From: Candidatus Woesearchaeota archaeon
GTDB lineage: Archaea; Nanobdellota; Nanobdellia; UBA10117; JABICX01
Assembly (NCBI GenBank): GCA_018692915.1
Contig: JABHLG010000009.1
Span: 9,332-73,331, forward strand
Direction: 5' to 3'
DNA length: 64,000 nt
In this document: in pieces, positions 34,548-58,354 of the stretch
Numbering within the stretch: the stretch's first letter is position 1
Layout of the letters: each line of letters opens with the position of its first letter
Position numbers and translations under genes: made by a program
The notes under the pieces: generated by a model
What the model was told of the DNA's origin: nothing
The model's input: only the letters and a program-made list of their open reading frames with translations
Database searches by the model: none

Positions 34548-34567
34548 TCTTTTCTTACAAGAAAAGA
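34548..34567 (-). terminator. palindromic hairpin tcttttctt-acaa-gaaaaga immediately 3' of the 34574 gene (recurring motif, copy A)
   Basis: Perfect inverted repeat. It is the same TTTCTT-GTAAG-AAA family found at four other sites. Confidence 0.4.
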
Positions 34568-34573
34568 AAGGCT

Positions 34574-35047
34574 CTACCAGGGGCTCTGCCAGTTCTGTTT
34601 AGGTTGCTGTTGCTGTTGTTGAGGTTGCTGAGTTTGGAATGACCCAAACGCATTAGCATCTTGCTGACCATAACCTGCTTGTTGCTGTTGAGGTTGCTGA
34701 GGTTGTTGCTGAGGTTTAGCTGGACTTAATTTACTTTCCATTTGTGTAATTTTCTGCTTTAGAACTTCCATCTCAGAAAGCAAAGAGTCAATCTTGCTAG
34801 TTAAAATCTCAATTTTATTTGACAGTTGCATTTGAGATGAAGCAGATGTTCCTGAAGAACTTGGAAGTGCTGAAGGACTTGGTAATTGACCTACACCACC
34901 TATATCTGGCATTTCGCCACCTGCGGGACCTAAAGCGCCACTTGGACCGCCAATTCCACTAGTAGGTAATTTCATAAAATCTTCTTCTTCATCAGGTCTT
35001 CCTCTTAACTTATCAAAAACGCCCATAAAACACAAAAAGATTATCAC
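34574..35047 (-). CDS. low-complexity protein with N-terminal MGVFDKL, a G/P/S-rich linker, a coiled coil and a poly-Q tail
   Basis: ORF track entry. The likely true start is at MGVFDKLRGRP (35026). The PspA/ESCRT-III-like N-terminal resemblance is weak. Confidence 0.45.
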   Translation of the reverse strand: MIIFLCFMGVFDKLRGRPDEEEDFMKLPTSGIGGPSGALGPAGGEMPDIGGVGQLPSPSALPSSSGTSASSQMQLSNKIEILTSKIDSLLSEMEVLKQKITQMESKLSPAKPQQQPQQPQQQQAGYGQQDANAFGSFQTQQPQQQQQQPKQNWQSPW

Positions 35048-35115
35048 TTAAATATTTTGTTATGTTATTGGAGTATGACCCAAAATATTATTAAGAACTG
35101 TAGTTTAGAGTTTAT

Positions 35116-36600
35116 ATGAGTAAGTATGAAATAATTATGGGGTCATATCAAGGTAGTGTTGAAAAATACTATTTCTTAGCTCTCGAACTGCTCGGAGAGT
35201 TTGGTTTTAAGTCAATCAAGACAAATGATACATTTACATCAAGTATAACTTCTTCATTCTGGGGCTCAATTGAACAACGGAGAACCTTACAACAAGAAAA
35301 AGCATCACAATTCCTTGCGACAATTGGCAACATGATTAAAACTATGTTTCAAATAATTAGGTCTTTACGAATTATGGACGAAAAGATGAAATATTATACT
35401 GAAGCTAAAAAAGGGCCTGACCGAAAATCTGCGGAAATTGCATTAAAAGGAATTTGGATTGATATGGTTGAAGGAGGAGGTAAGAATCCTAGTTCTATTT
35501 ATGGATTAGCAACACAAGTTGGATTTACTACACTTCCAGATTTATTCTTTGATATCTGTCCAAGAGATTCTACTGATTTAAACAAAAAAATGAATGAATT
35601 AAACAAAAGTGGAATAAACAAAAAAATAACTGAAGTTCTTAGAAGAAAACTTTTCCAATATATGGAATGGAGAGATAAAACTGATGAAGAAATTAAAACA
35701 AGTAGAAGATTCCACCTTGCTTATCTTAGACAGCACTTTAACACAATTCGAATGTATTTAAGTTGGGTCAAACCTTATTTGAAAAATGTAAATAGATTAA
35801 AACAACATGGCTCAAGACAAGAACATTTACTAGAAATGGCAGATACTGCAATATCTGATATTGAATTATTTTCTTATCCTGAAAATTTTAAAAAATATAA
35901 AAAATATGTTCCAATAATAACAACTAATTTTGAATACACAACAGTTCCTGAATTATCTTATCAACAAGAATACCAGCGAGGACCAATTCACGTTGGACGA
36001 ACGCGCATGGTAATCGAAGGAAAAGCAATGTTAATTGAAGAAGTACGTGAGAAGTTTAGGCAAGATATGTTAAACGATCTTAACTTACTAAAAGACATGT
36101 TCTCTGCAATGCAAGCACTTGGAGATGATTTAAAGAATTATTTAGAAGAAGCTGAAGAAGAAGACCCTGCAGGTAAACTAGGTAAAAAATTAAAATCTGG
36201 AAAAGCTAAAGCACCTACTGGAATTATTGGTTTATTTGGCCCATTCAAAGATATTGGAAAAGGATTTACAACATTATTTGGTGGATTTACGCGAGGGAAA
36301 AAGAAAGAGTTCAAAAAAACAGTTATAACATATGATTTACCAGAAGACATTGAAAAAATGTGGAAAATAAGACAAGCAACTGTAAAAGAAAAACGAAGTA
36401 GTAGAATGAAATTCAAAATGCGTGAAGATTTTGACGATGATAAATCATTTAAGAAATATTTAGACCTATCTAAAAAACGTAACACAAAAGCAGAAGAAGA
36501 TGAGCTTGCAGCAGTTAAAAAAACTGTAGAAAAAAAAGAAGACATTGTCTGGAAGATTTATGACACATACAAGAAAAGTCTTGGCGTTGTTCGATGGTAA
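35116..36600 (+). CDS. hypothetical protein (494 aa), charged C-terminal third
   Basis: Long clean ORF with no recognised domain. It is divergent from the Q-rich gene. Confidence 0.6.
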   Translation: MSKYEIIMGSYQGSVEKYYFLALELLGEFGFKSIKTNDTFTSSITSSFWGSIEQRRTLQQEKASQFLATIGNMIKTMFQIIRSLRIMDEKMKYYTEAKKGPDRKSAEIALKGIWIDMVEGGGKNPSSIYGLATQVGFTTLPDLFFDICPRDSTDLNKKMNELNKSGINKKITEVLRRKLFQYMEWRDKTDEEIKTSRRFHLAYLRQHFNTIRMYLSWVKPYLKNVNRLKQHGSRQEHLLEMADTAISDIELFSYPENFKKYKKYVPIITTNFEYTTVPELSYQQEYQRGPIHVGRTRMVIEGKAMLIEEVREKFRQDMLNDLNLLKDMFSAMQALGDDLKNYLEEAEEEDPAGKLGKKLKSGKAKAPTGIIGLFGPFKDIGKGFTTLFGGFTRGKKKEFKKTVITYDLPEDIEKMWKIRQATVKEKRSSRMKFKMREDFDDDKSFKKYLDLSKKRNTKAEEDELAAVKKTVEKKEDIVWKIYDTYKKSLGVVRW

Positions 36601-36605
36601 TGAAA

Positions 36606-36629
36606 CTTTCTTTCTTGTAAGAAAGAAAG
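36606..36629 (+). terminator. palindromic hairpin ctttctttctt-gta-agaaagaaag, 6 nt after the stop codon (recurring motif, copy B)
   Basis: Seen directly in the sequence. It sits in terminator position. Confidence 0.45.
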
Positions 36630-36781
36630 AACATAGAGAAAAACTATTTTTAAAATACATTATATAATGCCATTGTCTACGACAATTGCGGAATTGAAAA
36701 TCTATACGAATAACATCTTCAAATTTTCAATAAACAAATAAGGAAAGTTATTTCTATGAGTAATTACTATATAATTATAGC

Positions 36782-37306
36782 ATGACTAAACCAAGTAAGA
36801 ATGCTAAGAAACTTCAGAAGAAGCTAAACGGTAACAACACATCGCAAACTTCAAAAAAGCTTGCGGAGCTGACTACGTCAGAAACAAAAGACACTGAGGA
36901 CACTGAAAAAAAGAACCAAGAGAAAAAAACACAACAATTTATTAATGAAAATCATTTTGAGTTATTTTCTAAATTCACGCAACCAGAACATATAGATATA
37001 ACTAAACTCCTAACTGAATCACCAAACAAATCAGAAGAAACAGAAACATTAGAGCAAACTACTGCACAATTTATTACCCAAGAAGAAAGCGAAAACATTG
37101 TTCAAAACCAATATACAGGTGGTGAAGATTATACTAAATACAATAAACATGAGCATATAGATATAACAAAATATCCTATAAAAGATAAGCAATTAAAACA
37201 ATACAAAACAGAGCTACTTTCATTTAATCCAGTAACTACTGATAGTGAATCTAATTCTCCTGAATCAGATTATAACACTAAAAAACCCAAAGAACAACAC
37301 TACTAA
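36782..37306 (+). CDS. disordered polar protein with two EHIDITK repeats (174 aa)
   Basis: ORF track entry. Low complexity (T/E/K/Q/N). Confidence 0.4.
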   Translation: MTKPSKNAKKLQKKLNGNNTSQTSKKLAELTTSETKDTEDTEKKNQEKKTQQFINENHFELFSKFTQPEHIDITKLLTESPNKSEETETLEQTTAQFITQEESENIVQNQYTGGEDYTKYNKHEHIDITKYPIKDKQLKQYKTELLSFNPVTTDSESNSPESDYNTKKPKEQHY

Positions 37307-37400
37307 TTCCCAAACTTATTTATATATTAAAGAATATATATTCTATTATGATGTTAAAATGTGAAACATTTGAACGGCCCGCTAAAATGGAGGTTTTAGC

Positions 37401-39311
37401 GTGAAATTAAGTCCTACTTATTGGGAAGCAGGAAGAGCAGGTAATGATCAACATATTACTTCTATAGGCAACATCGGAATTGGAACTCATGCAGGAAAAG
37501 ACCAACTCCAAGAATTAAAAGCTAAGATTTTCAAAGGTGCTGGTGCTGTTGAACTTGGTTTTATGGGCCGTGGAAAGGGTGTAAAAGGTCAAGGAAACAC
37601 TACTCCTGGAATGCATGGTAAAGAAGAACGAGAAGCAATGCGCGACCTTGCAAAAGTAAATAAAGTTCGGTTATCAACACATGCGTCAGTTGGTGCAGGT
37701 TCATGGTCAGGTTTTCACGAAAACAAATTTGATGAAAATGCACGAGAACAAAATATTTTCGAAGGTAAACGAGCAATTGAATTTGCAGCAGATGTAGCAG
37801 AGGGCGGACCAATTGTTATTCATACAGGTGAATTTCCAAGAGGTATTACAGAAGTTCCTAATGGTGATGATAACTTTCGAACATTAATAAAAGAAAGTGG
37901 TCAGCAAACTCATTATCTTATGGATAAAAAAACAGGACAGTTAATCACAGCAGTTAGAGAAGACCAAGTAAATTTCGTGCCTGAATATGATGTAACAACA
38001 AATGAAAAAGACCAGTGGGGTAAAGAAATAAAACATATTAAATGGAAAGATAAACCAGGTGGAGAATTTAATATTATTAAACATAATTGGGCACATTATA
38101 AAGAAGAAGCTAAGAAAAATGATAGAGAAGATTATAAAAAATTCCAAAACCCTAACGATAAAAATTATGACCCTTCAAAATCAGCAGATCCATCTATACT
38201 TTTCTATTATGAAAATCTTGAAGCTAAACGATTACAAGCTCAAGGACAAGCAGATGAGTATGAATTAATGTATCGACGGCACGCAGATGATAGAGAAAAA
38301 ATCAAAAAAGCAGTAGATTATTGGGAAAAAAAATGGAAAGAAATACCTAAAGAAGATAGATGGAAACATATGGAAGCAATACCTATCGAAGGTAAAGGAT
38401 TAGTAGAACCACATGTTCGTAACAGACTTGAGCACCTTAAAAGAATGCTTGAAGACACTGAAAAGCAAATGAGTTATGGAAAAGAAGTCGCAGCTAGTTC
38501 ACGTGCTAATGAGCAAGAAATTAAAGACCAGCAAAAGAGAGTTACGTCAATTCCAGATTATGGTTTAAAAAAGACTGCAGATTCTATCGCCACAATGGCT
38601 ATTTATGCTGCTGAAGAACAGCAAAAGAAAAATCTAAAACGTGATATGTTTATAGCTCCTGAAAATATTTTTCCAGAAATGGGTTATGGTTCCCATCCTG
38701 ACGAACTTAAAAAAATTGTTCAAGACTCACGTAAAGAAATGGTTAAAAAACTAACAGATCCATTTATTGAAAGAAATGGTGAAAAAATCAAAAATCCAGA
38801 TTTCCATGCAAACCTTAGTGAAAGTAAAGCAAAAGAAATGGCTGCGCGACACATTAAAGCAACTTTTGATATTGGGCATGCAAATACTTGGCAAAAATAC
38901 TTTAAAGGCAAGCCAAAAGAATTCAAAAAATGGCTTATTGATCAAGTATCTGAACTAAACAAGGAAGGAGTTCTTGGTCACGTGCACGTTACAGATAATT
39001 TTGGTTATTATGATGAGCATTTATCTCCAGGGCAAGGTAATGTTCCTGTTGAGGAGTTTGTTAAGCAATTAAAAAAATCTGGATATAAAGGTCAAATTAC
39101 AGTTGAAACTGCAGAGCAGGACTACAAAGCAATGACTGAAATGTGGAGAACTGTAAACAGTCCCGTTTATAAAATCGGTGGCGGATGGCAAGACTGGGCA
39201 GGTATTGAGCAAGGATACTTTGGTAAAACTCGCTCACCTAATTTCTTATTTGGTCCAATTGCTCCAGACCCAAAAACATGGACTCTTTGGTCAGAAGTCC
39301 CGATGGAATAA
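37401..39311 (+). CDS. xylose-isomerase-like TIM-barrel (sugar phosphate isomerase/epimerase / endonuclease IV superfamily) protein with about 330-aa charged insertion
   Basis: N-terminal barrel half GAVELGFMGRGKG ... RLSTHAS ... IVIHTGE. C-terminal half FDIGHANTW ... GHVHVTDNFGYYDEHLSPGQGNVPVEEFVKQLKKSGYKGQITVE. GTG start with ggagg SD at -12. Confidence 0.6.
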   Translation: MKLSPTYWEAGRAGNDQHITSIGNIGIGTHAGKDQLQELKAKIFKGAGAVELGFMGRGKGVKGQGNTTPGMHGKEEREAMRDLAKVNKVRLSTHASVGAGSWSGFHENKFDENAREQNIFEGKRAIEFAADVAEGGPIVIHTGEFPRGITEVPNGDDNFRTLIKESGQQTHYLMDKKTGQLITAVREDQVNFVPEYDVTTNEKDQWGKEIKHIKWKDKPGGEFNIIKHNWAHYKEEAKKNDREDYKKFQNPNDKNYDPSKSADPSILFYYENLEAKRLQAQGQADEYELMYRRHADDREKIKKAVDYWEKKWKEIPKEDRWKHMEAIPIEGKGLVEPHVRNRLEHLKRMLEDTEKQMSYGKEVAASSRANEQEIKDQQKRVTSIPDYGLKKTADSIATMAIYAAEEQQKKNLKRDMFIAPENIFPEMGYGSHPDELKKIVQDSRKEMVKKLTDPFIERNGEKIKNPDFHANLSESKAKEMAARHIKATFDIGHANTWQKYFKGKPKEFKKWLIDQVSELNKEGVLGHVHVTDNFGYYDEHLSPGQGNVPVEEFVKQLKKSGYKGQITVETAEQDYKAMTEMWRTVNSPVYKIGGGWQDWAGIEQGYFGKTRSPNFLFGPIAPDPKTWTLWSEVPME

Positions 39312-39385
39312 AGAGTAGTTTTGCTAATAGAATATTTTAATTAGGAAGTAGTCACTAAAATATTATATATAATTCAATATATATA

Positions 39386-40219
39386 TTGAATACTATGAAA
39401 TTTAAAGTTAGACATAATAAGGGCCATTTAAATTATAATAAAAAATATCCAAAAAACGAAATAATAATTGCTAGGAAACTAGCAAAGCGACTTTACAAAG
39501 AAATGGGTGAGTTTATTGTTGCTATGTCTTTATTTGGCTCTTCAGCACGTGGCGGGCATAAAAAACATGACATTGATGTATTAGTTATAATTGATGATGT
39601 TCATGTTAAATTAACGCGCGAGCTAATTGAAACATATCGCATAATTCTTGCAAAAGCTGTTTCAAATATAGACCCAAAGCGACTTCATATTCAAACTATG
39701 GCTTGGACATCTTTTTGGGAGTATGTTAGAGTTGGAGACCCTATTGCAATAAACATATTACGAGATAGTATTTCATTAATTGATATTGGATTCTTTGACC
39801 CACTTCAAACACTTTTATTCCAAGGCAGAATAAGACCTAGTGAAGAAAGCATTTGGACATATTTTTCACTAGCACCTACATCATTACACAGTTCAAAAAT
39901 GCACATTAATGCAGCACTTTTAGACCTTTATTGGGCAGCAATTGATGCAGCACATGCTGCTCTTATGAGTATTGGTGAAATTCCACCTAGCCCCGCACAT
40001 GTTTCTGACATGATACAAAAAAAATTAGTTGTGCCTGGATTAGTTCCTGCACGCTGTGCAACTGTAATGAAACACATGTATATTATATCTAAAAAAATCA
40101 CTCACGGTGAATATTCTCATTTAGAAGGTGACGATTATGATAAATACCAGCGCCATGTTCAGAAATTTATAAAAGACATGGAGAAAGTCATTAAACATAA
40201 AATTAATAAGAAATTATAA
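39386..40219 (+). CDS. Pol-beta-type nucleotidyltransferase domain fused to a helical HEPN-like domain (277 aa)
   Basis: LFGSSARGGHKKHDIDVLVIIDD is the GS-x(n)-DxD NTase motif. It is paralogous to the core of the 41299 gene (shared LRD.I.L.D.G.F.P...L..G.I.PS.E.I). Confidence 0.65.
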   Translation: MNTMKFKVRHNKGHLNYNKKYPKNEIIIARKLAKRLYKEMGEFIVAMSLFGSSARGGHKKHDIDVLVIIDDVHVKLTRELIETYRIILAKAVSNIDPKRLHIQTMAWTSFWEYVRVGDPIAINILRDSISLIDIGFFDPLQTLLFQGRIRPSEESIWTYFSLAPTSLHSSKMHINAALLDLYWAAIDAAHAALMSIGEIPPSPAHVSDMIQKKLVVPGLVPARCATVMKHMYIISKKITHGEYSHLEGDDYDKYQRHVQKFIKDMEKVIKHKINKKL

Positions 40220-40227
40220 AATTCCTA

Positions 40228-40250
40228 CGTTGGCCGCAACGTGTGTTGCG
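40228..40250. terminator. GC-rich overlapping hairpins (cgttggccgcaacg / cgcaac-gtgt-gttgcg) between convergent genes
   Basis: Seen directly in the sequence. Candidate bidirectional terminator. Confidence 0.35.
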
Positions 40251-40289
40251 AACCAGGCAGGAACCTTAAGTAAAATTTAGTTAAAAAGT

Positions 40290-41228
40290 CTAAAATAGAC
40301 CTTTTAACATGTTGTTTTGTGCTAACAGAACAGTAGCTTGTGTTACTGCGCCTCTGTTATTGTGTAGCTTTTTACCAGTTAATTGTTTGTATATATCTTT
40401 AATTAAAGTGTGCACAGCTGTTACTTCAGCAGGCTCTTCTCTAATTTCAGAGTCAGCTCTATTCTTAACAACTTTCTGCATGTATCTTCGTGCTTGAGAA
40501 GCTTCTTGCTCATTTTCTTCAATTGAATATGTTCCTTCAGCCATACTTTCTGCAGTGCTATTAAGATCTAAACCTGTTATAGAATCTAAAAGGCTTTGAT
40601 AAGTTGCAAATGTATCTGCATATTCATCAGTATCTGTTGATCCTCTAAGAATCGCTTCTTGTGCAGGTGTAAGTGTAAGATGAGATGCAATTCCAAGTTC
40701 AGTTTGGCCTTTAATCAGGTCAACTAAAACTTCTTGTGTGTGTGTTCCTGTGGCATCGATACCTATTGGATTTCCCATAGTATCTTTTTTAATTAAATCT
40801 TTTGCTCTAACTACATTCATAAAATCATTTTCATAGACTTTACTTGTAAGTTTTCTTGACTGGTCAGAATTATAAATTCTTTCCAATGCTTTTTTTCCGT
40901 CAAATGGCATTTTATTATTCCTCGTTTCTACTAAAGAGTTAATATAATCGTTTAAAAAGCTTTCGGTTTGTTCTAAAAAGTAATTATTTGCTAAATTTTC
41001 ATATCCTGACCATTTTGCGCCAGCTTTTGTTCCAGGCGCGCGAGGAAAACCAAATCGCAGCGATCCATCATTATCTTGTCTAATTATGCTCTCACCATTT
41101 TCGACATCAAAAAACGCTTCACTAAGTAGTTTGTAATGCTCATTTTCATCCTTAGCTCTTGGATGTGGTTTGATCAGCTTATCTTCAATATATATCTTTA
41201 AGTCTGCAGGTAATTCCTTTGAAACCAT
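40290..41228 (-). CDS. hypothetical protein (312 aa)
   Basis: ORF track entry with no recognised domain. It lies between the two NTase paralogues. Confidence 0.55.
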   Translation of the reverse strand: MVSKELPADLKIYIEDKLIKPHPRAKDENEHYKLLSEAFFDVENGESIIRQDNDGSLRFGFPRAPGTKAGAKWSGYENLANNYFLEQTESFLNDYINSLVETRNNKMPFDGKKALERIYNSDQSRKLTSKVYENDFMNVVRAKDLIKKDTMGNPIGIDATGTHTQEVLVDLIKGQTELGIASHLTLTPAQEAILRGSTDTDEYADTFATYQSLLDSITGLDLNSTAESMAEGTYSIEENEQEASQARRYMQKVVKNRADSEIREEPAEVTAVHTLIKDIYKQLTGKKLHNNRGAVTQATVLLAQNNMLKGLF

Positions 41229-41298
41229 TCGATAATAACACCTAAAGACTTAAAAGAGTATCCAAAAGCTTTATATTTATTGTGTTTCAAGATTTATA

Positions 41299-43206: not shown

Positions 43207-43239
43207 ATTCCGATAATCTTTTAAACTAGTTTTATTGGT

Positions 43240-43509: not shown

Positions 43510-43563
43510 TTTTTTCTAGAATCGCAACATATTTAAACAACTTATGTTACTCATAAGTGAATA

Positions 43564-44103: not shown

Positions 44104-44144
44104 TTTTACTTATTTTATTCCAATAAAATAAACTTATTCGAAGC

Positions 44145-48552: not shown

Positions 48553-48735
48553 AGCCTCGGGGGAGATTTTCATCATCTTACAATCTGTTCTTTTGGGATT
48601 GTAAAACCTTTTCTTACAAGAAAAGGGATTATATTGAACTCCCGACCTCTGCCTTACCAAGGCAGCGCTATTTAGAGCGTTCCGGTCTAAGCCGGCGAAG
48701 CTTTGCTTCGGCACGTACCCCTAAGCCACCGAGGC
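48553..48735 (-). tRNA. probable tRNA (anticodon GGU, Thr-like) with non-canonical introns (about 71 nt in the T-loop, about 44 nt in the D region)
   Basis: GC-rich island. On the minus strand: 7-bp acceptor gcctcgg/ccgaggc, T-stem gggag/ctccc, T-loop ttcaa[intron]at giving TTCAAAT, variable aggtc, and anticodon arm ctgcc-ttGGTaa-ggcag. The T-loop insert is homologous to the tRNA-Leu intron. The D-arm could not be resolved by eye. Confidence 0.45.
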
Positions 48736-49276: not shown

Positions 49277-49452
49277 AACTAAGAAAACTATTTTAATCAG
49301 TTGCTTTTTTAGAAAAGATGATAGAAAAAGACAACAAGGAAAAACTGAAAGAACTTCTTAAGAATATGGGTATGGCTTTTACAGATGCGGATGAAATAGT
49401 TGAAAAATCCAAAACTACTGTCAAGAAATCTTCTGATGTAAAATAATAATTT

Positions 49453-49743: not shown

Positions 49744-49759
49744 TTTAATATAGTAGTAA

Positions 49760-50143: not shown

Positions 50144-50240
50144 TTTTGCTCTGATATATACTCCAAAAGGAGTAAAAAGACAGCAACTCGCAATTTGCTG
50201 TATAATCTTATCAGAAATTATTGTTTAAAAGAATACCTAT

Positions 50241-51479
50241 TTACCGCGTTTTCTTACCAGTAGAATATTTTGATTTTTTATTATTTTTAAATATATAATT
50301 TACTAGCTTCATTAAAATAGGAGTCATAACTACAGTTAATAAAATTAATATTAATACACTTGAAAATAAACCTGATATATCTTCATTTACAAAGAAATTA
50401 ACATTATCACTAACTAATATCATTAAGGCACTCATTACAACTAATGTTACTTCGCCATAAGGCAACATAGCTAATCCAGTTATTAAAGATTCTCGAGTAT
50501 CATATTTAAATAATTTTGCTACAGTAAATGCACCACCTACTTGTATGGTTATTATAACTCCAAAAAACAATAATGCCCTATATATGTTAGAGGCAAAGTT
50601 TGTAAATTCTAATAAAGTACCTGTCATTACAAAAAATATTGGTATAAAAAACCCGTATGATATTGAATGTATTTTTTTATGGAAACTATAAGTTTCGAAG
50701 ACAGGCGATCTTGCAATCATAATTCCTGCAATAAATGCTCCAATAATTAAACTCAATCCAAAACTTGCTGCCAACCACGCAAATAATAATATCAATACTA
50801 TGGCAAATGTAAATTGTGCTTCTTGAACTTTAAATTTAATAAAACTATTGCTGATTTTAGGCATATATCTAAAGCCTAAATAAAATAATGCGAAGCAAAT
50901 TAAAATAGATGCGAAAGATTTTCCTAAGGATAAAAAGATATTTCCAGCACCACTAAGTACTACGTCTGCATATGTGACTACTCCAGTTAAAAGTAAAAGG
51001 CCAGTAATATCGTTAAGAACTAAACTACCCATGACAGTTTTACCCACCTTAGTATCTAGTTCTTTAACCCCCATTAATGAAGCAAGTGATACTCCCATCG
51101 AAGTTGCACCTAATGCTGTTGCTAAAAATAAACTCGTAAGTAATGAGAAACCCTGCATCTGGGTTAAAATAATTACTGCAATTACTGGCAGTGTAGAACT
51201 CAATAATGATATTGATATGGATGTATTTTTGTATTTTAATAATTCCTTTATTGAACCGTGTTCAAAACCTGCTAAGAATATTAATAATATAATTCCAAGT
51301 TCTGCAAACAGCTTAAATGTCATATCGGGACTAATAATTTTTAGTACTGCTGGACCAAGTAATATTCCAGTTAATATTTCACCTAATAAAGCAGGCATTT
51401 TTAGCTTCTGAGCTAATTCACCAAATAATTTAGCAAGTAGTAATAAAATTGCCAACCCTAAAAAAATATTAATATCCAT
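50241..51479 (-). CDS. monovalent cation:proton antiporter (CPA family, Na+/H+ exchanger)
   Basis: A 12-13 TM profile. The N-terminus FGELAQKLKMPALLGEILTGILLGP is typical of NapA/Kef-type proteins. Confidence 0.85.
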   Translation of the reverse strand: MDINIFLGLAILLLLAKLFGELAQKLKMPALLGEILTGILLGPAVLKIISPDMTFKLFAELGIILLIFLAGFEHGSIKELLKYKNTSISISLLSSTLPVIAVIILTQMQGFSLLTSLFLATALGATSMGVSLASLMGVKELDTKVGKTVMGSLVLNDITGLLLLTGVVTYADVVLSGAGNIFLSLGKSFASILICFALFYLGFRYMPKISNSFIKFKVQEAQFTFAIVLILLFAWLAASFGLSLIIGAFIAGIMIARSPVFETYSFHKKIHSISYGFFIPIFFVMTGTLLEFTNFASNIYRALLFFGVIITIQVGGAFTVAKLFKYDTRESLITGLAMLPYGEVTLVVMSALMILVSDNVNFFVNEDISGLFSSVLILILLTVVMTPILMKLVNYIFKNNKKSKYSTGKKTR

Positions 51480-51931
51480 TATTTCTTACCTTTTTTATTA
51501 CCTTTCGTTATTTGTTTATAATGCCTTAAAATCGCAATATCTGTTAATATGCCTAATAATTTTTTTCTTTTATCAACTATGGGGATAGTTGATATGCCTT
51601 TATCATACATTATTTGTATAATATCAGATAATTCATCATCTAGATAAGCAACAATTTCATGTTTATTGAAAAAATCGTCAACGATATTAGAAAAAGACGA
51701 TTGTAAATTTTTTATAGCTTCAAAGTCTAGCCCCTCGGAAGATAGTCTTTGTTTAGCAATAAGCTTCAAAAGTAAATCTTTTTGATTTAGTTCACCAATA
51801 ACTTTACCTTTTTTATTAATTACTGGTAATGAAGATTCAGGAACGGAAATTAACAAATTAATTGCTTTTAAAATATTCTCGTGTGGTTTAATTGTTTTTG
51901 GATTTAAAAGCATAATATCTTTTATCTTCAT
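51479..51931 (-). CDS. CBS-domain pair protein (likely regulator of the adjacent antiporter)
   Basis: Two CBS repeats. Its stop overlaps the antiporter start by 1 nt. Confidence 0.7.
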   Translation of the reverse strand: MKIKDIMLLNPKTIKPHENILKAINLLISVPESSLPVINKKGKVIGELNQKDLLLKLIAKQRLSSEGLDFEAIKNLQSSFSNIVDDFFNKHEIVAYLDDELSDIIQIMYDKGISTIPIVDKRKKLLGILTDIAILRHYKQITKGNKKGKK

Positions 51932-52039
51932 ATTATATAATTCATTATATATATTTATAGTTTGCTGAGTAAAATCTAACCAATAAAATTGTTTAAAAAA
52001 GTATCCAAATTGTTATAAAATCGAATTCTTACCTGAGCT

Positions 52040-52321
52040 ATGGTTAAACCTGAGTTAATAGCTAGAAAGAAATCTAAACAAACCAAATCTAAAATGGATT
52101 GGAGTAGAGTTGAAGAGCTATTAGCTGAAAAACTCGCTGACAGAGTTAAAATCAAACTTAAAATAAGAGAATCAGATGAATTAGAAAATGCTGATGAAAT
52201 AGAAGATGCTGTTGACGAAGGTGAATTTTCACAAGAAGAGCTTGATGAAGAAATTAACTCAAGAGAAATCGCTTATTTTTTCATCCACAGACACATAAAT
52301 AAAATACACAAAGTTGGCTAA
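52040..52321 (+). CDS. hypothetical acidic small protein (93 aa)
   Basis: ORF track entry. Confidence 0.35.
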   Translation: MVKPELIARKKSKQTKSKMDWSRVEELLAEKLADRVKIKLKIRESDELENADEIEDAVDEGEFSQEELDEEINSREIAYFFIHRHINKIHKVG

Positions 52322-52370
52322 ATTATATTCTTAGAAACAGTTAAAAACCGCTTATTTCTCGTATAATTAT

Positions 52371-52509
52371 GCTGGGGTACCGAAGTGGTCAAACGGGCAG
52401 GACTTAAGATGAGCCCTTTCTTGTAAGAAAGGTTTCACAGTCCCAAAGAACAAATTATAAGACATCCTGTGGCTTAGTGCCTACGCAGGTTCAAACCCTG
52501 TCCCCAGCA
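52371..52509 (+). tRNA. tRNA-Leu (anticodon UAA) with about 55-nt intron at the canonical 37/38 position (approximately 52410-52464)
   Basis: Acceptor gctgggg/ccccagc, D-arm ccga-agtggtcaa-acgg, anticodon arm cagga-ctTAAga-[intron]-tcctg, a long variable arm (ggcttagtgcctac), T-arm gcagg-ttcaaac-cctgt, discriminator A. No encoded CCA. Confidence 0.75.
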
Positions 52510-52676
52510 CATTTATTTTTATTCTGGAAAGATTATGTTATGGCGATCAGATTACGTTTAAATAAAAAGAATGTAAAAAAGGCGCTAGTTGAGTTCTGAA
52601 TACCTATTCGATACCTTTATATATGAATAAGTATTCATAATTATTAGAGCTGAAAAAAGCTTAGGAGGAAAATAAA

Positions 52677-52949
52677 ATGCCAAATCAAGATGGAACGGGA
52701 AGATTAGGACGAGGACGAAACTGCGACGATGTCGCTATATCTGATAGAACTGGTGGCGGTTTCGGACGAGGAAGAGGATTAGGACGTGGCCTTGGAAGAG
52801 GTTCTGCAAGAGGTGCGGGATACGGATTTCGAAAAACAGATTATCAAACACCAACTAAAAAAGATGAAAAATCTTACTTAACTACTGAACTAAAAGCTGC
52901 TGAAGAAGCCATATCTGAAATTAAAAAGAGACTACAAGATTTAAAGTAG
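52677..52949 (+). CDS. DUF5320-like Gly/Arg-rich protein with C-terminal coiled coil
   Basis: MPNQDGTGRLGRGRN ... GRGRGLGRGLGRGSARGAGYG ... EAISEIKKRLQDLK. Strong SD aggagg. The family is typically linked to NifX-like and DUF134 genes. Confidence 0.6.
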   Translation: MPNQDGTGRLGRGRNCDDVAISDRTGGGFGRGRGLGRGLGRGSARGAGYGFRKTDYQTPTKKDEKSYLTTELKAAEEAISEIKKRLQDLK

Positions 52950-52983
52950 TTTCTTTTTTATATTATTATATTTAAATAATTAC

Positions 52984-53331
52984 ATGAAAATTGCATTTGC
53001 AGCTGAAGGCGAAGGAATTAGTGCTAGTTTAGCTTATCATTTTGGTAGATGTCCGTACTATGTTTTTGTTGAATTAGAAAGTAACAATATCAAAAGTACA
53101 ACTACAAAGAAAAATCCTTTTTTCAACAAACATGAAGAAGGATCTGTGCCAAAATTTATTGCGGGTGAAAAAGCAAAGATTATGATTACAGGTGGAATCG
53201 GACCAAAAGCTATAGAATGGTTTGATAAGTTGGGAATAATCGTAATAACTGCTAAACCTAAAGAATTAACTGCGGTTTTGAAAGATTACTTGGATGGAAA
53301 ATTATCTGGAGCAAAATCATGCAGAACTTAA
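52984..53331 (+). CDS. NifX/NifB-like dinitrogenase FeMo-cofactor-binding domain protein
   Basis: MKIAFAAEGEGISASLAYHFGRCPYYVFVE ... ITGGIGPKA. Confidence 0.7.
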   Translation: MKIAFAAEGEGISASLAYHFGRCPYYVFVELESNNIKSTTTKKNPFFNKHEEGSVPKFIAGEKAKIMITGGIGPKAIEWFDKLGIIVITAKPKELTAVLKDYLDGKLSGAKSCRT

Positions 53332-53750
53332 AAATAAAACGACTTAAACAAGCAGTAATCAAAGCCAGCAAAGGTATATGGAATGCAGTCCCGATGATTA
53401 TATGTGTTGTATTATTGATTGGATTACTGAACGTATTGATACCTAAATCTACATATTCAAAAGTTTTCACAAACAGTATTTTTGATCCAGTAATTGGGGG
53501 GGCATTAGGAAGTATTCTTGCAGGCAGTCCTATAACAAGTTATATACTTGGTGGAGAATTTCTTGCGCAAGGAGTTAGTTTAGTTGCAATCACTGCTTTT
53601 ATTGTATCGTGGGTAACAGTAGGTATTGTTACACTACCTGCTGAAATAGTAATGCTTGGAAAAAAATTTGCAATAACAAGAAATGCCATTAGCTTTGTAT
53701 TTGCCATTCTAGTTGCAATAATTACTGTCGGGGTGCTTAACTTACTATGA
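53319..53750 (+). CDS. permease, N-terminal part (two-piece permease)
   Basis: Hydrophobic TM protein. It overlaps the next ORF through ATGA. Confidence 0.55.
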   Translation: MQNLKIKRLKQAVIKASKGIWNAVPMIICVVLLIGLLNVLIPKSTYSKVFTNSIFDPVIGGALGSILAGSPITSYILGGEFLAQGVSLVAITAFIVSWVTVGIVTLPAEIVMLGKKFAITRNAISFVFAILVAIITVGVLNLL

Positions 53751-54280
53751 AACAAACAAGTTTGTTGCCGTTTAATCAAAAGATTAAGCTGAAGCTTCAA
53801 GATATAAGCAAAGCATGGTATTTTGTTATCTCAATTATATTTATTTATATAATTCTTGGCGTAATTGATTTTACAAAAGCATTAGAATCATTACAATTCT
53901 CAGCAAGTGTTTTCATAAAAATTATACCTGTTTTTGTTTTAGTCTTTGCTTTAATGGCTATAACTAATTATTTTGTTACACCTAAAAAGCTAGCCGGCTG
54001 GCTAAACAAAAAGCATGGTTGGTTGATAGCGATTGTTGCAGGTATAATCTCAACAGGTCCAATTTATATGTGGTATCCTATGCTTCAAGACTTGCAGAAG
54101 CAAGGAGTTAAAAACGGATTGATAGCAACTTTCCTATACAATCGGGCAATCAAACCAGCACATCTGCCTTTAATAATTATATACTTTGGACTTGCTTTTA
54201 CAGTTGTCCTAACTATTGTGATGGCTGTCTTATCTGTTATTCAAGGCTGGCTAGTTGAGAAAATCGTTGACTACTTTTAA
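53747..54280 (+). CDS. permease, C-terminal part
   Basis: Hydrophobic. Together the two ORFs total about 320 aa, the size of a single predicted-permease (DUF318-like) protein. Confidence 0.55.
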   Translation: MKQTSLLPFNQKIKLKLQDISKAWYFVISIIFIYIILGVIDFTKALESLQFSASVFIKIIPVFVLVFALMAITNYFVTPKKLAGWLNKKHGWLIAIVAGIISTGPIYMWYPMLQDLQKQGVKNGLIATFLYNRAIKPAHLPLIIIYFGLAFTVVLTIVMAVLSVIQGWLVEKIVDYF

Positions 54281-55014
54281 ATTACTGCCAAACTTACAGC
54301 CATTACAGCCATTCCAATAAACACCCCCGCAATTGTAATATGATGTTTTTCATATTTAAGTGCGTTAGGTAAAAGCTCATCAAAGCTTATGAAAACCATA
54401 ATTCCAGCCACTGCTGCAAGTATAATATTAAGTATAAAAACATTTAGAAAATTCATTAAAAATAAGTAAGCAATTATAGCACCAATCGGCTCAGCAATTC
54501 CTGAAAACGCAGCATATGAAAAAGCCTTAATTTTGTTTCCAGTAGCATAATAAATCGGCATAGCTATAGCAATACCTTCCGGAATATTATGTATTGCAAT
54601 TGCAATAGCAACAATCAATCCGAGTCTAATATCTACAATCGATGAAAAAAGAACAATCATACCTTCCGGAATATTATGAATAGTAATCCCCACAGCTACT
54701 AAACGCCCACATCTTTCTAATTCTTTTTTCTTGCAAGGTGGATTTTCAGCTTCATATGAATGTGGAATAAGTATATCAATTAGGTATATTATCAAGATTC
54801 CTACAAAGAATGAAATAATCGCATAGTTATAGCCAATATTTTCAATGCTTTCACCTAAAAGTTCGGTCAAAGAAATAAAAATCATTACTCCTGCTGCAAA
54901 ACCCATACCAAGAGATAGGTAACTTAATTTAGGTTTTTTTATAAAAAAGATAATTGCTCCACCAATTAGTGTAGAAAGTCCTGCTAATATCGTAAGAATA
55001 AATGCATTAATCAT
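54277..55014 (-). CDS. ZIP-family divalent metal transporter (ZupT-like)
   Basis: HNIPEG motifs (ITIHNIPEG, IAIHNIPEG). Confidence 0.85.
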   Translation of the reverse strand: MINAFILTILAGLSTLIGGAIIFFIKKPKLSYLSLGMGFAAGVMIFISLTELLGESIENIGYNYAIISFFVGILIIYLIDILIPHSYEAENPPCKKKELERCGRLVAVGITIHNIPEGMIVLFSSIVDIRLGLIVAIAIAIHNIPEGIAIAMPIYYATGNKIKAFSYAAFSGIAEPIGAIIAYLFLMNFLNVFILNIILAAVAGIMVFISFDELLPNALKYEKHHITIAGVFIGMAVMAVSLAVI

Positions 55015-55081
55015 TTTCTAATATTTAAGTATAATATAAAAACATTATGAATATATATGCAAAAAATCGTTAGGTTTTTAT

Positions 55082-55399
55082 ATGAATATGTATTCAATTA
55101 ATATTATGAAAATAGCAATTGCATCTGAAGGTAAAACAGAAGATTCTAAAATAAGTGGAGCTGCTGGAAGAGCACTGTATTACCTTATTTTTGAAGATAA
55201 AAAACTTGTAAAAACTATTGAAAATCCTTTCAGACGTGGCAGTGGTGGCGCTGGTTATTCTGTTGCTCGCATGCTTGCTAATGAAAAAATAGATGAAGTT
55301 GTTGCCGGCCAATTTGGTGGAAACATGACTGGCGCTTTAGAAGAAAATGGAATCAAATCAAAAACTGCTTCAGGAAAAGTAAAAGAGGTAATTCAATGA
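55082..55399 (+). CDS. NifX/NifB-like FeMo-cofactor-binding domain protein (second copy)
   Basis: MKIAIASEGKTEDSKISGAAGRALYYLIFE ... VVAGQFGGN. Confidence 0.7.
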   Translation: MNMYSINIMKIAIASEGKTEDSKISGAAGRALYYLIFEDKKLVKTIENPFRRGSGGAGYSVARMLANEKIDEVVAGQFGGNMTGALEENGIKSKTASGKVKEVIQ

Positions 55400-55674
55400 C
55401 ACCAAGACCGTGTATAAACAGACGAGTAAGATTTAATCCTAATGCAGATTATTTTAAGCCTGCAGGTATTCCTATGCGAACTCTTGAAGAAGTTCAACTG
55501 ACTCTTGGAGAAGCAGAAGCAATTAGATTATTTGATGTTCAAAACTTAGAGCAAAAGCAATGTGCTGAGAAAATGGAAGTTTCGCAACCAACATTTTCAC
55601 GAATTTTAGACTCCTCAAGAAAGAAAGTTGCTGATGCACTGATTAATGGAAAAGCAATAAGAATTGAAAAATGA
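55396..55674 (+). CDS. DUF134 (UPF0251) predicted DNA-binding protein
   Basis: PRPCINRRVRFNPNADYFKPAGIP ... LTLGEAEAIRLFDVQNLEQKQCAEKMEVSQPTFSRIL. Confidence 0.7.
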   Translation: MTPRPCINRRVRFNPNADYFKPAGIPMRTLEEVQLTLGEAEAIRLFDVQNLEQKQCAEKMEVSQPTFSRILDSSRKKVADALINGKAIRIEK

Positions 55675-56771
55675 AAGCATTAAAATTTGCTTTGGTGTTG
55701 TTAGTAATTCTTAATATATTTGCAGTTGTGTCGGCTGAAGAAACCTGTGCATATTTTTTCTATGGTGAAGGATGTCCGCACTGCGGAAAAGTCAAACCAT
55801 ACATTGACGAGCTCAACCAACAACCAGAAGTTAATATACAGATTTTTGAAATATATCACAACCGAGAAAATGCGGTTTTACTTAATGATTTTTACGAATC
55901 CTATAATGTTCCAGCAAATTCAAGAGGAGTTCCTACGGTTTTAATCAATGGGAAATATTTAGTAGGTGATGATCCAATTTTAGATAATCTTGAAACTGAA
56001 CTTATTAAAAACAAGGGTGTTTCTTGTCCATCTTTAGTAAATGAAGGTGCTACGGGCGTAACTGGACAATCTTCATCAACAAATGAGTTTGGCGGTCTAT
56101 CCATATTGACGGTAACTGGAGCAGCATTTGTTGATTCAATTAATCCATGTGCAATCGCAGTTCTTTTGATTTTACTTTCAGCATTACTAGCTTCGGGTGA
56201 GAAAAAACGAGCACTAAAAGCTGGAATTGCTTTTACAATATCAATATACATTTCATATTTCTTATTTGGAATTGGTTTGTTCAAAGTGATTCAAATTTCA
56301 GGAGTCTCATATACCTTTTACAAACTTGTTGGCTTGCTTGCAATTATTGTGGGTATCTTTAATTTAAAAGATTGGATCAAACATGGCTCTTTGGGTTTTG
56401 TGATGGAGATTCCACGATCGTGGAGACCTACGCTTAAGAAATTGCTTAATAAGGTTACATCACCAATTGGCGCATTTTTAATGGGATTCTTAGTGTGTTT
56501 GTTTGAACTACCTTGTACGGGAGGACCCTATATTGTAATACTCGGCTTGCTTGCTCAAAGAACAACACAGATGCAAGCTTTACCAATACTTGCGTTTTAT
56601 AATCTCGTATTTATACTACCACTATTGGTCGTTACCTTCCTTGTATTTAGAGGCTTTACAACAATAGAATCAGCAGACAAGTGGAAAGAAAAGCATATCC
56701 GAAAGCTCCACTTAATTGCAGGTATTGTTATGATAGCATTAGGTGCAGTAATTCTAAGTGGATTAATCTAA
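55671..56771 (+). CDS. thioredoxin-like domain fused to CcdA/DsbD-type transmembrane thiol-disulfide transporter
   Basis: Signal peptide and CPHC thioredoxin motif at the N-terminus. The C-terminus has six TM helices and Cys residues (CAIAVLL ... ELPCTGGP). Confidence 0.75.
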   Translation: MKALKFALVLLVILNIFAVVSAEETCAYFFYGEGCPHCGKVKPYIDELNQQPEVNIQIFEIYHNRENAVLLNDFYESYNVPANSRGVPTVLINGKYLVGDDPILDNLETELIKNKGVSCPSLVNEGATGVTGQSSSTNEFGGLSILTVTGAAFVDSINPCAIAVLLILLSALLASGEKKRALKAGIAFTISIYISYFLFGIGLFKVIQISGVSYTFYKLVGLLAIIVGIFNLKDWIKHGSLGFVMEIPRSWRPTLKKLLNKVTSPIGAFLMGFLVCLFELPCTGGPYIVILGLLAQRTTQMQALPILAFYNLVFILPLLVVTFLVFRGFTTIESADKWKEKHIRKLHLIAGIVMIALGAVILSGLI

Positions 56772-57032
56772 ACCATAAGATTCCATAAATCCAGTTATTA
56801 ATTTATATTCCTTGAGATAGCCTGAACCCTTAGCAGTTAGTGAATATGTTTTGCCTTTCGGGTTTTTAGTTTCTGTAATAAAGCCTTTTGAGATAAGTTC
56901 ATTCAAATACTGCTCAAGCATTTGATGTGAGAGATTTGCTTTATACATTATATGTGTCGGTTTTGTCTTGCCAATCTGAATCGCTTTGAGAATGTCATAA
57001 ATAACTTGAAGACTTTCTCTTTTTGATTTCAT
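56763..57032 (-). CDS. winged-helix DNA-binding protein (HTH_45-like)
   Basis: THIMYKANLSHQMLEQYLNELISKGFITE ... YSLTAKGSGYL. Confidence 0.6.
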   Translation of the reverse strand: MKSKRESLQVIYDILKAIQIGKTKPTHIMYKANLSHQMLEQYLNELISKGFITETKNPKGKTYSLTAKGSGYLKEYKLITGFMESYGLD

Positions 57033-57679
57033 TTCTTAAGCAACCTCAGATTAACTAATACACATACATATGCAATCAGCTCTAAGGACCTTCCAAGTAT
57101 GAAGAACAATCCCTGGCGGGCTGCAAATATAAATGTAAAATTACTAATTAGCAAAAAGACAAACGCAATCAAAACCAGTTCTGTCTTTAAGTTCTTATGC
57201 GCCCGATAGTTCCGATAATAAAACAATACGAGGAACATTAACATGAAAGAGGAAATAATATGAAATACATGAATAGACATGGGGTTAAACAGAATCGGGA
57301 TCAAAACCAACCCTAATAACAACCCAAGTAATTGCTTGCTCCGTGTTTTGCAAGTCATATAAACCAAAAGAATTAGACCAACTGAAAACAGGATTTCATG
57401 AGAAAACGTAGACGCAGTAATAAACGGAACTGCTGTTCTAAATTTAGCTCTAACAACTGTTTCAAGCTTATACTTCAAAACAATTCCAAGAATCACCTGG
57501 AGAATATATGCAAGTGCAAAAGACAAGAATGCAAAACTAAAAAGTTTCAACTCTTTCCGACCTGTAAGTTTGTAAACTTTGTATGAAATAAAACTAACTA
57601 AAAAAGTCGTAACAGCAAAAGCCAAAGTAAAAAGTATATTAAGATTCATAAATCCTTGAGAAATTGCATAAGGTGGCAT
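57029..57679 (-). CDS. polytopic membrane protein (216 aa)
   Basis: ORF track entry with about six TM helices. Confidence 0.5.
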   Translation of the reverse strand: MPPYAISQGFMNLNILFTLAFAVTTFLVSFISYKVYKLTGRKELKLFSFAFLSFALAYILQVILGIVLKYKLETVVRAKFRTAVPFITASTFSHEILFSVGLILLVYMTCKTRSKQLLGLLLGLVLIPILFNPMSIHVFHIISSFMLMFLVLFYYRNYRAHKNLKTELVLIAFVFLLISNFTFIFAARQGLFFILGRSLELIAYVCVLVNLRLLKK

Positions 57680-57786
57680 ACTAAGAAAAGCTTAATTTTG
57701 TTTAAAAGAGTTGTGAAGGATTCCTCTTATTTATCCTTAACAGCGCTTTAATAAAGCAAATTTATATTTCCTTCAGGAGAACCAAA

Positions 57787-58212
57787 ATGAAAAATAATAA
57801 AATAATTGGAATGATGGCGCTGTTCGTTATTGGTATGATAGTATCAGTAGGAGCAGTCAGTGCATATAGGGGTAACTATTCAATAGAAGGTCCTAACTGC
57901 TCACCTGAAAGGCACGAAGAAATGCAACAAGCATTTGAAAATCAAGATTATGAATCATGGTATAACTTAATGACTGAAGATGGAAGACATCCACGAGTTG
58001 TTGATGTTGTAAATGAAGATAATTTTGATGTGTTTGTCAAAGCACATGAAACTGGAAAATCTGGCGACACTGAAACTGCTGCACAATTGCGAGCTGAACT
58101 TGGACTAAATAACGGTATGGGTCCAAAAGACGGAACAGGTTTCAGAAGAGGAATGGGTTCAAGACAAGGTCTTAGAGATGGTTCTGGAGCTGGACAGATG
58201 AAAGGTCAATGA
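57787..58212 (+). CDS. secreted protein with Gly/Arg-rich DGTGxRRGxG tail
   Basis: Signal peptide. The C-terminus GMGPKDGTGFRRGMGSRQGLRDGSGAGQ echoes the N-terminus of the DUF5320-like protein. Confidence 0.5.
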   Translation: MKNNKIIGMMALFVIGMIVSVGAVSAYRGNYSIEGPNCSPERHEEMQQAFENQDYESWYNLMTEDGRHPRVVDVVNEDNFDVFVKAHETGKSGDTETAAQLRAELGLNNGMGPKDGTGFRRGMGSRQGLRDGSGAGQMKGQ

Positions 58213-58336
58213 AAAAAGTAATTCTTCCTTTATTTTTTATTTTTAGATAAGCTTTTTATTACTATAATCTCATATATTTACATATATCCCGACAAACAGG
58301 AACAAAGTGGACTCGTTGTGTCCCCAGCACTGAACC

Positions 58337-58354
58337 TTTTTCTTGTAAGAAAAA
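58337..58354 (+). other. palindromic hairpin tttttctt-gt-aagaaaaa (recurring motif, copy E), 7 nt after a 12-nt copy of the tRNA-Leu 3' end
   Basis: Seen directly in the sequence. tgtccccagcac at 58319-58330 equals 52499-52510. Confidence 0.5.

Follow-up and report, generated by a model that had tools for sequence, protein, structure and literature searches.

What is a near-perfect palindrome doing five times in 64,000 nucleotides (nt) of archaeal DNA, twice directly behind protein genes, twice inside tRNA genes and once next to a repeated piece of a tRNA? The stretch in question (positions 9,332 to 73,331 of contig JABHLG010000009.1, assembly GCA_018692915.1, Candidatus Woesearchaeota; "the window" from here on, 64,000 nt at full length) has a G+C content of 32% and is rich in A/T runs. 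It encodes TFB, ribosomal protein S8e and Trm1, the closest named homologues of its proteins are those of Woesearchaeota and Nanoarchaeota, and contigs identical to it come from marine metagenomes and from the metagenome-assembled genome GCA_018672575.1. An earlier inspection of the letters without database searches (the sequence-only reading) had considered three roles for the palindrome: a terminator, an RNA-processing hairpin, or the core of a small, intron-like mobile element that had reached intergenic sites as well. The analysis described below points to the third. The five palindromes are probably copies of one short non-coding, non-autonomous interspersed element of ~33-49 nt, all five of which are missing from a sister strain.

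Five copies of one element

All five palindromes were found within 2 nt of the positions first given for them. Their shared 14-mer, TTTCTTGTAAGAAA, has exact matches at 34551-34564 (minus strand, site 1), 36611-36624 (plus, site 2), 48610-48623 (minus, site 3), 52417-52430 (plus, site 4) and 58339-58352 (plus, site 5). Dinucleotide shuffles of the window, from which chance levels were taken, give 0.01 expected matches, and none of 100 shuffles reached five; for the 10-mer core TCTTGTAAGA, five matches compare with 0.30 expected. The count is, as had been claimed, far above chance. The perfect Watson-Crick stems of sites 1 to 5 measure 11, 11, 9, 8 and 8 bp, and a general scan of the window for pyrimidine/purine hairpins retrieved these five and one unrelated site.

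The 14-mer is only the most conserved piece of a larger unit. The sequence-only reading had taken the palindrome for the whole and overlooked both a third, mirror-repeat segment and the heptamer AAGAACA, which occurs within 30 nt 3' of all five copies (P ~0.008 per site). At four sites the heptamer is the last part of a purine tract mirroring the 3' arm; no such structure was present in 20 shuffles. The resulting anatomy is tripartite. From 5' to 3', a 4-bp outer helix comes first, then a C·Y mismatch and a pyrimidine/purine hairpin; behind a spacer, the element closes with a mirror purine tract ending in GAAC(A). The outer helix is variable in sequence (GAGC/GUUC, GAAC/GUUC, UGAG/UUCA) and flanks the perfect arms beyond the mismatch, which is conserved as C·U or C·C. 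The hairpin is 8-13 bp long, its 5' arm all pyrimidine, its 3' arm all purine and its centre asymmetric (CUU-GU-AAG). The spacer is short and itself a small palindrome (CC-UUCA-GG, CG-UUCG-CG, CCC-UUAA-GGG), as expected for a fold-back turn. The mirror tract is the 3' arm reversed, not complemented.

Two copies are full elements. Copy 1 (34525..34573, minus strand, 49 nt) reads AGCC, pyrimidine arm TTTCTTTTCTT, GT, purine arm AAGAAAAGAAA, spacer CGTTCGCG and mirror AAAGAAAAGAA-CA, with 11 of 11 positions of arm and tract in mirror relation. Copy 5 (58332..58372, plus strand) reads GAAC, C, TTTTTCTT-GT-AAGAAAAA, C, GTTC, TCG and mirror AAAAAGAA-CA, with 8 of 8; its outer helix is GAAC/GTTC. In copy 3 (48586..48631, minus strand), the outer helix begins with TAAT, after which come C, CCTTTTCTT-GT-AAGAAAAGG, T and TTTA; further on, the loop of a second hairpin (ACAATC/GATTGT) contains CCCAAAAGAACA. 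Copy 4 (52410..52452, plus strand) has TGAG as the first strand of its outer helix, C, CCTTTCTT-GT-AAGAAAGG, T and TTCA, then CAGT-CCCAAAGAACA. The mirrors of copies 3 and 4 extend over 7 and 6 nt, respectively. Copy 2 (36601..36633, plus strand) is shortened to 33 nt, its 11-bp hairpin running straight into AACA with neither spacer nor separate mirror tract. The loop between the arms measures 2-4 nt and the spacer loop 8 nt at sites 1 and 5 and 12 nt at sites 3 and 4. A search against Rfam returned no family for the element, either at E<1 anywhere in the window or on 16 related loci.

Covariation was scored in 71 unique copies whose arms are longer than the enforced 6 bp, with the enforced bases excluded from identity. 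The third tract follows the 3' arm: of 164 arm positions with A, 152 are matched by A in the tract, and of 99 with G, 97 are matched by G or C. Identity between arm and tract was 62.6%; over 2000 permutations it averaged 40.7% and never exceeded 47.6%. Thirteen distinct long arms have a mirror of full length. Variants with the centres GA, AA, GC and UU keep the mirror, and a G-initial centre goes together with a C after the mirror tract. Watson-Crick pairs, of many types, account for 163 of the 216 scored in the outer helix.

Watson-Crick pairing does not give rise to a mirror relation. Such a relation is the hallmark of a third strand running antiparallel to the purine arm, with A·A-U/T and G·G-C triads. 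The order of domains is that of the class II intrastrand purine-motif triplex, in which a pyrimidine arm, a purine arm and a 3' mirror reverse-Hoogsteen purine arm follow one another (PMC4666352); site 2 is shortened in this respect. To judge by its letters, the element may fold as an intramolecular triple helix. For the sense strand, the literature favours DNA, purine-motif triplexes being reported not to form in RNA, where the complementary pyrimidine-motif strand can (PMC4666352).

Empty sites and tRNA introns

A sister strain was found through the 494-amino-acid protein encoded next to site 2 (L125) and a Na+/H+ exchanger (P0101, 96% amino acid identity; L139, L140). The comparison thus concerns one sister lineage, whose aligned flanking DNA is 84-96% identical at the nucleotide level. 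None of the five copies is present there.

At site 1, the palindrome lies 4 nt past the TAG of a glutamine-rich gene (34574..35047, minus strand), and copy 1 occupies the entire spacer between this stop codon and the ATG of the next gene (34524). The window reads TGGTAG[AGCC...47 nt...AAGAAC]AATG and the sister strain TGGTGA-A-ATG. Copy 2 directly follows the TAA of the 494-amino-acid gene, which places its palindrome 6 nt past that codon; here, GGTAA[TGAAAC...AAGAAC]ATAGAG stands against GGTAG-A-ATAGAG. Both inserts begin right past the stop codon and end at GAAC. Copy 5 ends 9 nt upstream of the ATG of the Dus gene; from tRNA-Leu to Dus, the window has 5.8 kb and the sister strain an unrelated segment of 856 nt that holds one gene. 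Since all five copies are missing from the sister strain, the element is gained and lost quickly. The converse arrangement was also encountered: a more distant relative (L126, minus strand, ~14760-14810) has a variant whose core differs, TTCTTTCTTTT-GT-AAAAGAAAGAA ... AAGAAAGAAAA-CAA with an 11/11 mirror, right after the stop codon of an NTP_transf_2 gene, at a position where the window is empty.

The remaining two copies are parts of tRNA introns. When run on the window, ARAGORN reported 0 tRNAs and Rfam only tRNA-Leu(UAA). The gene around site 3 (48553..48735, minus strand), proposed before as a candidate tRNA, turned out to be genuine: ARAGORN missed it and Rfam scored it below threshold (18.1 bits), but after in-silico splicing ARAGORN calls it tRNA-Thr(GGU). 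Its acceptor stem is GCCUCGG/CCGAGGC, its anticodon arm CUGCC-UUGGUAA-GGCAG and its T stem GGGAG/CUCCC, and it contains two non-canonical introns. One, in the D-loop, is 45 nt long (48671-48715, minus strand) and has no second copy within the window. The other, in the T-loop at position 59/60, is 66 nt long (48567..48632, minus strand) and is made up of copy 3 and a 3' tail, GATTGTAAGATGATGAAAA. The tRNA-Leu(UAA) gene (52371..52509, plus strand; Rfam RF00005, 44.4 bits) is called Leu-TAA by ARAGORN after in-silico splicing. Its canonical 37/38 intron of 55 nt (52409..52463, plus strand) opens with 1 nt, which is followed by copy 4 and then by the tail AATTATAAGAC. The contexts given before for the five palindromes, two 3' of protein genes, one in a T-loop insert, one in the tRNA-Leu intron and one beside a 12-nt copy of the tRNA-Leu 3' end, were therefore all correct.

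Both hairpin-bearing inserts fit the definition of a bulge-helix-bulge (BHB) motif, with a 4-bp helix and two 3-nt bulges, each predicted to be cut after its second nt, and once the inserts are removed, both genes give a canonical tRNA. In the Thr T-loop intron, the tail UGAA pairs with UUCA of the T-loop and the bulges are AU/A and AA/U; in the Leu intron, the tail UAAG pairs with CUUA of the anticodon loop and the bulges are AG/A and AC/A (the slash marking the predicted cleavage). The predicted splice junctions are GGGAGUUCAAU/UCUCCC and CUUAAG/AUCCUG. The minimum free energy fold of the Thr insert contains the T stem, the UUCA/UGAA helix and the 3' AAU bulge, with a relaxed 5' side.

The two intron copies are homologous over ~50 nt, despite their different positions in different tRNAs, and they are alike beyond the element as well (A-R-AUU-R-UAAGA). 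In tRNA-Leu the UAAG of this shared tail pairs with the anticodon loop, while in the Thr T-loop intron it has no such role. Because UAAG has a pairing role only in Leu, the shared tail suggests that the Thr intron derives from a Leu-type intron.

The sister strain provides the matching intronless allele. Its tRNA-Thr exons are identical to those of the window and the D-loop intron is the same, but the T-loop is uninterrupted and reads GGGAGTTCAATTCTCCC, which is the predicted splice product. The sister gene (L139, 3400-3528) has in addition a 12-nt mini-intron, AUUUUACCAAAU, at position 37/38, where the window copy has none. The intron complement therefore differs between strains whose tRNA-Thr exons are identical. 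At site 4, the tRNA-Leu exons are again identical, and the sister 37/38 intron is an unrelated sequence of 37 nt. At the S8e orthologues P0003 and P0005, tRNA-Thr is not syntenic. By interrupting tRNA genes, the element conceals them from standard finders, and the window may hold further hidden tRNAs.

Two other identities were considered for the intron sequences and rejected. A C/D-box small RNA in or after the T-loop intron scored 21.2 bits in Rfam, against a gathering threshold of 38, and the match runs into the S8e start codon. The 3' half of the intron (CAATCCCA...GATTGTAAGA) resembled a CRISPR repeat, of which no array exists within the window.

The surroundings of the intergenic copies were also inspected. 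At site 5, the 12-nt copy TGTCCCCAGCAC of the tRNA-Leu 3' end (52499-52510) lies at 58319..58330 on the plus strand, 1 nt upstream of copy 5; upstream of Dus, the sister strain has neither this repeat nor the element. By itself the match is weak (BLAST-short E = 0.35, with several chance 12-mers per 120-nt query). It may be an att-like repeat, or what is left of a tRNA 3' end in whose trailer the element lay; in other genomes, copies stand straight after tRNA 3' ends (L049, L056, L061, L111). Between tRNA-Leu and the repeat extends a variable island of 5.8 kb (52510..58318) with metal- and redox-related genes, whose Pfam labels are DUF5320, two Nitro_FeMo-Co, ArsP, ZIP, DUF134, DsbD-like and HTH_45. 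No integrase was found in the island, though its layout is att-like. A 10-mer, CCCGACAAAC, which occurs upstream of site 5 and in L049, was discarded, its frequency fitting chance. Just 3' of copy 2, ~110 nt (36634-36745) are missing from the sister strain and have no other copy in the window. Elsewhere in the window, a 53-nt direct repeat of 91% identity (28670-28722 and 28803-28855), unrelated to the hairpins, lies at and shortly past the end of a gene for a 587-amino-acid protein.

Spread in other genomes and competing explanations

The exact two-block pattern TTTCTTGTAAGAAA-N2-22-AAGAACA was scanned over 185,579 species genomes and matched at least 114 loci. Among the matches listed, DPANN archaea account for 49 of 80 titled loci, several genomes having 3-5 loci each, and the groups represented are Micrarchaeota, Woesearchaeota, Pacearchaeota, Parvarchaeota, Aenigmatarchaeota, Iainarchaeum, Nanoarchaeia and other archaea. 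The motif is multi-copy in at least seven DPANN lineages, while a composition estimate predicts ~1 match or fewer by chance over all DPANN genomes. Most archaeal copies among the matches listed are inside tRNA genes, either after the D-loop sequence GUAGCUCAGU, at position 37/38, or in the T-loop after GGUUCAAA. Judged by these tRNA motifs, 30 of the 75 archaeal copies among the matches listed are in sense and 4 in antisense orientation. This motif-based count was used instead of an ARAGORN deletion scan, which placed only 20 copies in tRNAs, many of the genes having further or longer introns. In canonical-site introns, as seen in the flanks of related loci, the outer helix starts 0-2 nt past the 5' splice site.

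Stable RNAs other than tRNA are also affected. In Iainarchaeum (L037, copies at 3623-3664 and 4647-4688), the element lies 35 nt after the 23S rRNA and 15 nt after the RNase P RNA, and in two Iainarchaeum-like loci (L090, L117) copies lie directly 3' of 23S rRNA or RNase P RNA genes. One copy (L065, 4039-4080) is inside a 23S rRNA span ~1 kb longer than the Rfam model. There are, moreover, a tandem array of three 57-nt element units (L052, minus strand, ~340-520) and a composite tRNA-Thr intron built of repeated "purine arm - CC-UUCA-GG - mirror arm" modules (L123, 3600-3860). The element persists only at harmless sites, which are the positions right behind stop codons, the trailers of stable-RNA genes and the interior of tRNA and rRNA genes.

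Several observations from the same scan stand apart. At L049 (7715-7890), the element stands between a complete tRNA-Gly(GCC) and a repeat of the last 17 nt of that tRNA, AAATCCaGGCAGGCGCA, the tRNA 3' end being duplicated around the element. Bacterial loci (Clostridia/Oscillospiraceae and others: L014, L087, L105, L060, L067, L025, L059, L042, L091, L092, L096) have the same core with extended, co-varying stems followed directly by CAAAGAACA, and in some of them a shared hairpin, GCGAAGCUCCGCUUCGC, comes next. In L060, two copies with different arms lie at a distance of 80 nt. These loci may form a related bacterial family in which the spacer is almost absent. Viruses as carriers were rejected, since the 12 IMG/VR matches are homologous coding sequences without extended hairpins. 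A literature string search found the 14-mer in no paper.

We consider these results best explained by a mobile non-autonomous repeat that is tolerated at non-coding sites and neutralised by splicing, and that is not a terminator; this explanation is the likelier one overall, and with it the suggestion of a small mobile intron-like element spread to intergenic sites is supported by the homologous intron copies, the empty sister sites and the same element in introns and intergenic sites across DPANN. In compact DPANN genomes, the sites at which such an insert is tolerated would be the few nt after stop codons, the trailers of stable RNAs, and RNA genes if the insert can be spliced. Inside a tRNA gene, the insert would be accompanied by a short 3' tail that is complementary to the exon loop beside it. 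The two would form a BHB substrate, from which the tRNA splicing endonuclease (EndA) and ligase (RtcB) would then excise the insert. The outer helix would act as the distal BHB helix beside the 5' splice site; that the element supplies this helix is suggested by the start of the outer helix 0-2 nt after the splice site. Splicing would neutralise the insertion, and introns would be created or replaced by the element. Hairpin and mirror would fold as a triple helix, most plausibly in single-stranded DNA, and this fold may be linked to copying or insertion. We infer both the mechanism of insertion and that the element generates introns rather than landing in existing ones. A bolder version, in which the family creates non-canonical BHB introns in DPANN tRNA and rRNA genes as a DNA-level mobile element, enters tRNA genes and intergenic sites alike, survives in RNA genes through its excision by host splicing and needs the triplex for its propagation, is tentative and, in our judgement, rather doubtful.

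A number of points weigh against this explanation. Loss in the sister strain could replace gain in the window, though five precise losses would be needed. No target-site duplication is visible at the filled/empty junctions, and no transposase, integrase or reverse transcriptase was found near any copy in the window. Around protein genes the element has no strand bias (12 co-oriented and 10 convergent copies). By demanding an exact pattern, the search makes the core look more conserved than it is, and variants with other centres exist. For the triplex, the mirrors of copies 3 and 4 are only 6-7 nt long and have C at G positions, and copy 2 has no separate third tract. Hoyne et al. (2000) reportedly set the loop limit at 0-10 nt, and the spacers of 8-12 nt are at or beyond it. 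The same spacers are longer than the loops of 1-6 nt given in the ITxF definition (PMC4666352). Outer-helix pairing and self-pairing of the spacer compete for the same bases. GU mismatches (11) are about as numerous as AC mismatches (9), which gives no evidence on the strand that folds. Finally, since purine-motif triplexes are reported not to form in RNA, an RNA triplex does not explain the sense-strand bias in tRNA genes.

That bias is the first argument for an alternative in which the element is a BHB intron mobile at the RNA level, spreading by reversed endonuclease/ligase splicing, reverse transcription and recombination, its intergenic copies being by-products in mRNAs and trailers. The intron copies are sense-oriented (30 against 4 among the matches listed), the outer helix abuts the 5' splice site, and the UAAGA tail in the T-loop intron, functional only in the Leu-type intron, suggests copying from intron to intron. 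Moreover, an insert in a single-copy tRNA must splice from the start, which reverse splicing would guarantee. However, no reverse transcriptase was seen near the window copies, the intergenic copies have neither a BHB at their junctions nor a strand bias relative to protein genes, and the covariation of the mirror repeat has no role in such a process. To our knowledge, reverse BHB splicing has never been demonstrated. We regard this alternative as unlikely, while giving it some weight.

Slightly less credible still is a functional RNA hairpin under host selection, a signal for 3' ends, stability or processing that would block 3' exonucleases or guide maturation behind genes and stable RNAs and would be incidental in introns. 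Copies just 3' of stop codons (sites 1 and 2 and the L126 variant), copies after 23S rRNA, RNase P RNA and tRNA 3' ends, and a core strongly conserved across phyla would all be expected of such a signal. Yet the sister strain manages without all five copies, of the copies in the vicinity of protein genes about one in two is antisense to the closest 3' end, and site 1 splits an operon-like stop/start junction of co-directional genes, where stop and start are separated by 1 nt. The narrower proposal of a terminator fails on several counts, the junction at site 1 among them. In sense orientation no T-run follows the hairpins but a purine tract; a terminator search gave 0 sense-strand matches at sites 1, 2 and 5 and a weak antisense match at site 2; and a terminator within tRNA introns would be harmful, as it would stop tRNA synthesis. 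Of the RNA-processing hairpin, only a narrow part stands: in intron copies, the outer helix and the 5' splice site are 0-2 nt apart, and this helix can act as the distal one of the BHB.

A palindrome bound in DNA by a dimeric regulator or nucleoid protein, as in an operator or regulon motif, is very improbable. The inverted repeat is near-perfect, its half-site TTTCTT is highly conserved and sites 1 and 5 are just upstream of start codons, but the centre is asymmetric and keeps its orientation in tRNA genes, and no dimer-operator model predicts arms that vary in length and sequence while the mirror tract co-varies with them. Locations in tRNA and rRNA introns and in tandem arrays are likewise unlike those of operators, and the genes beside the copies have unrelated functions. 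Coincidence in an AT-rich genome, for which only the base composition with its many A/T runs speaks, is practically dismissed by five matches where 0.01 are expected, the lack of any such structure in shuffles and the recurrence of the motif in dozens of DPANN genomes.

Comparison with known repeats and introns

Both parent concepts of the window element are known: intrastrand-triplex repeats and transposing archaeal tRNA introns. Its nearest structural counterparts are the BoxC/PIT/TMECO repeats of E. coli and other Proteobacteria. BoxC/TMECO forms a DNA triplex in vitro and marks unstable, rearrangement-prone loci in E. coli (Holder et al. 2015, PMC4666352). Like the window element, these repeats have the same domain order, are short, multi-copy, non-coding and mostly extragenic, differ in copy number between close strains and occur at variable loci. 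Their sequences are unrelated, the TMECO consensus being CCCTCNCCC-N3-6-GGGNGAGGG-N3-GGGNGAGGG and the window element reading TTTCTT-GT-AAGAAA...AAGAAC. TMECO is G/C-rich, whereas the window element is A/T-rich (A·A-T triads with few G·G-C), has a longer second loop (8-12 nt), an extra outer helix and the C·Y mismatch. It is also archaeal and resides within tRNA and rRNA introns, and its triplex is predicted from sequence, whereas that of TMECO has been demonstrated.

Repetitive extragenic palindromic (REP) sequences, with the mosaic elements built from them (BIME), and miniature inverted-repeat transposable elements (MITEs), known from bacteria and archaea, are similar in being small palindromic repeats just 3' of genes, non-autonomous, present in many copies and variable between strains. 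In contrast to these, no terminal inverted repeats, target-site duplications, RAYT or transposase partner were identified for the window element at its sites and in their neighbourhoods, and it has a third mirror tract and a residence in introns that REPs and MITEs do not have. A conceptual parallel is SOS splicing, by which DNA transposons are excised from animal mRNAs (PMC12779559). There, the structure of the inserted element triggers a non-spliceosomal excision at the RNA level that protects the host gene, as we propose here; machinery and domain of life differ, and the likeness is one of analogy and not homology.

The literature searched did not contain the combination seen here, an A/T-rich class II triplex-type element that many DPANN phyla share, that occupies tRNA and rRNA introns, RNA trailers and post-stop sites and of which filled and empty alleles exist. 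With it, the range of intrastrand-triplex repeats, so far characterised from Proteobacteria and Cyanobacteria, comes to include DPANN archaea and also transcribed RNA genes. It also bears on how archaeal tRNA introns are acquired at new positions: one defined element of 40-50 nt occurs in tRNA introns as well as at ordinary sites between genes, sister strains differ in having the filled or the empty allele, and intron gain thereby becomes directly testable.

Two precedents concern archaeal tRNA introns. In Thermoproteales, tRNA introns have been transposed, by a mechanism described as unknown (Fujishima et al. 2010, via PMC4090602), and in Caldiarchaeum a population-level intron heterogeneity was described at tRNA-Thr(GGU) (Sugahara et al. 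2012, PMC3293823). As in the window, introns are gained and lost within a population, and Thr-GGU is affected too. In Caldiarchaeum, a 1.8-kb element encodes a recombinase; no such gene was seen in the window case. Unlike both precedents, the window element carries its intron core outside tRNA genes as well (after stop codons, after rRNA and after RNase P RNA), and it has a defined triplex-type architecture common to several DPANN phyla. Should it prove to create introns, it would provide a concrete, testable sequence for the long-sought mechanism of archaeal tRNA intron transposition.

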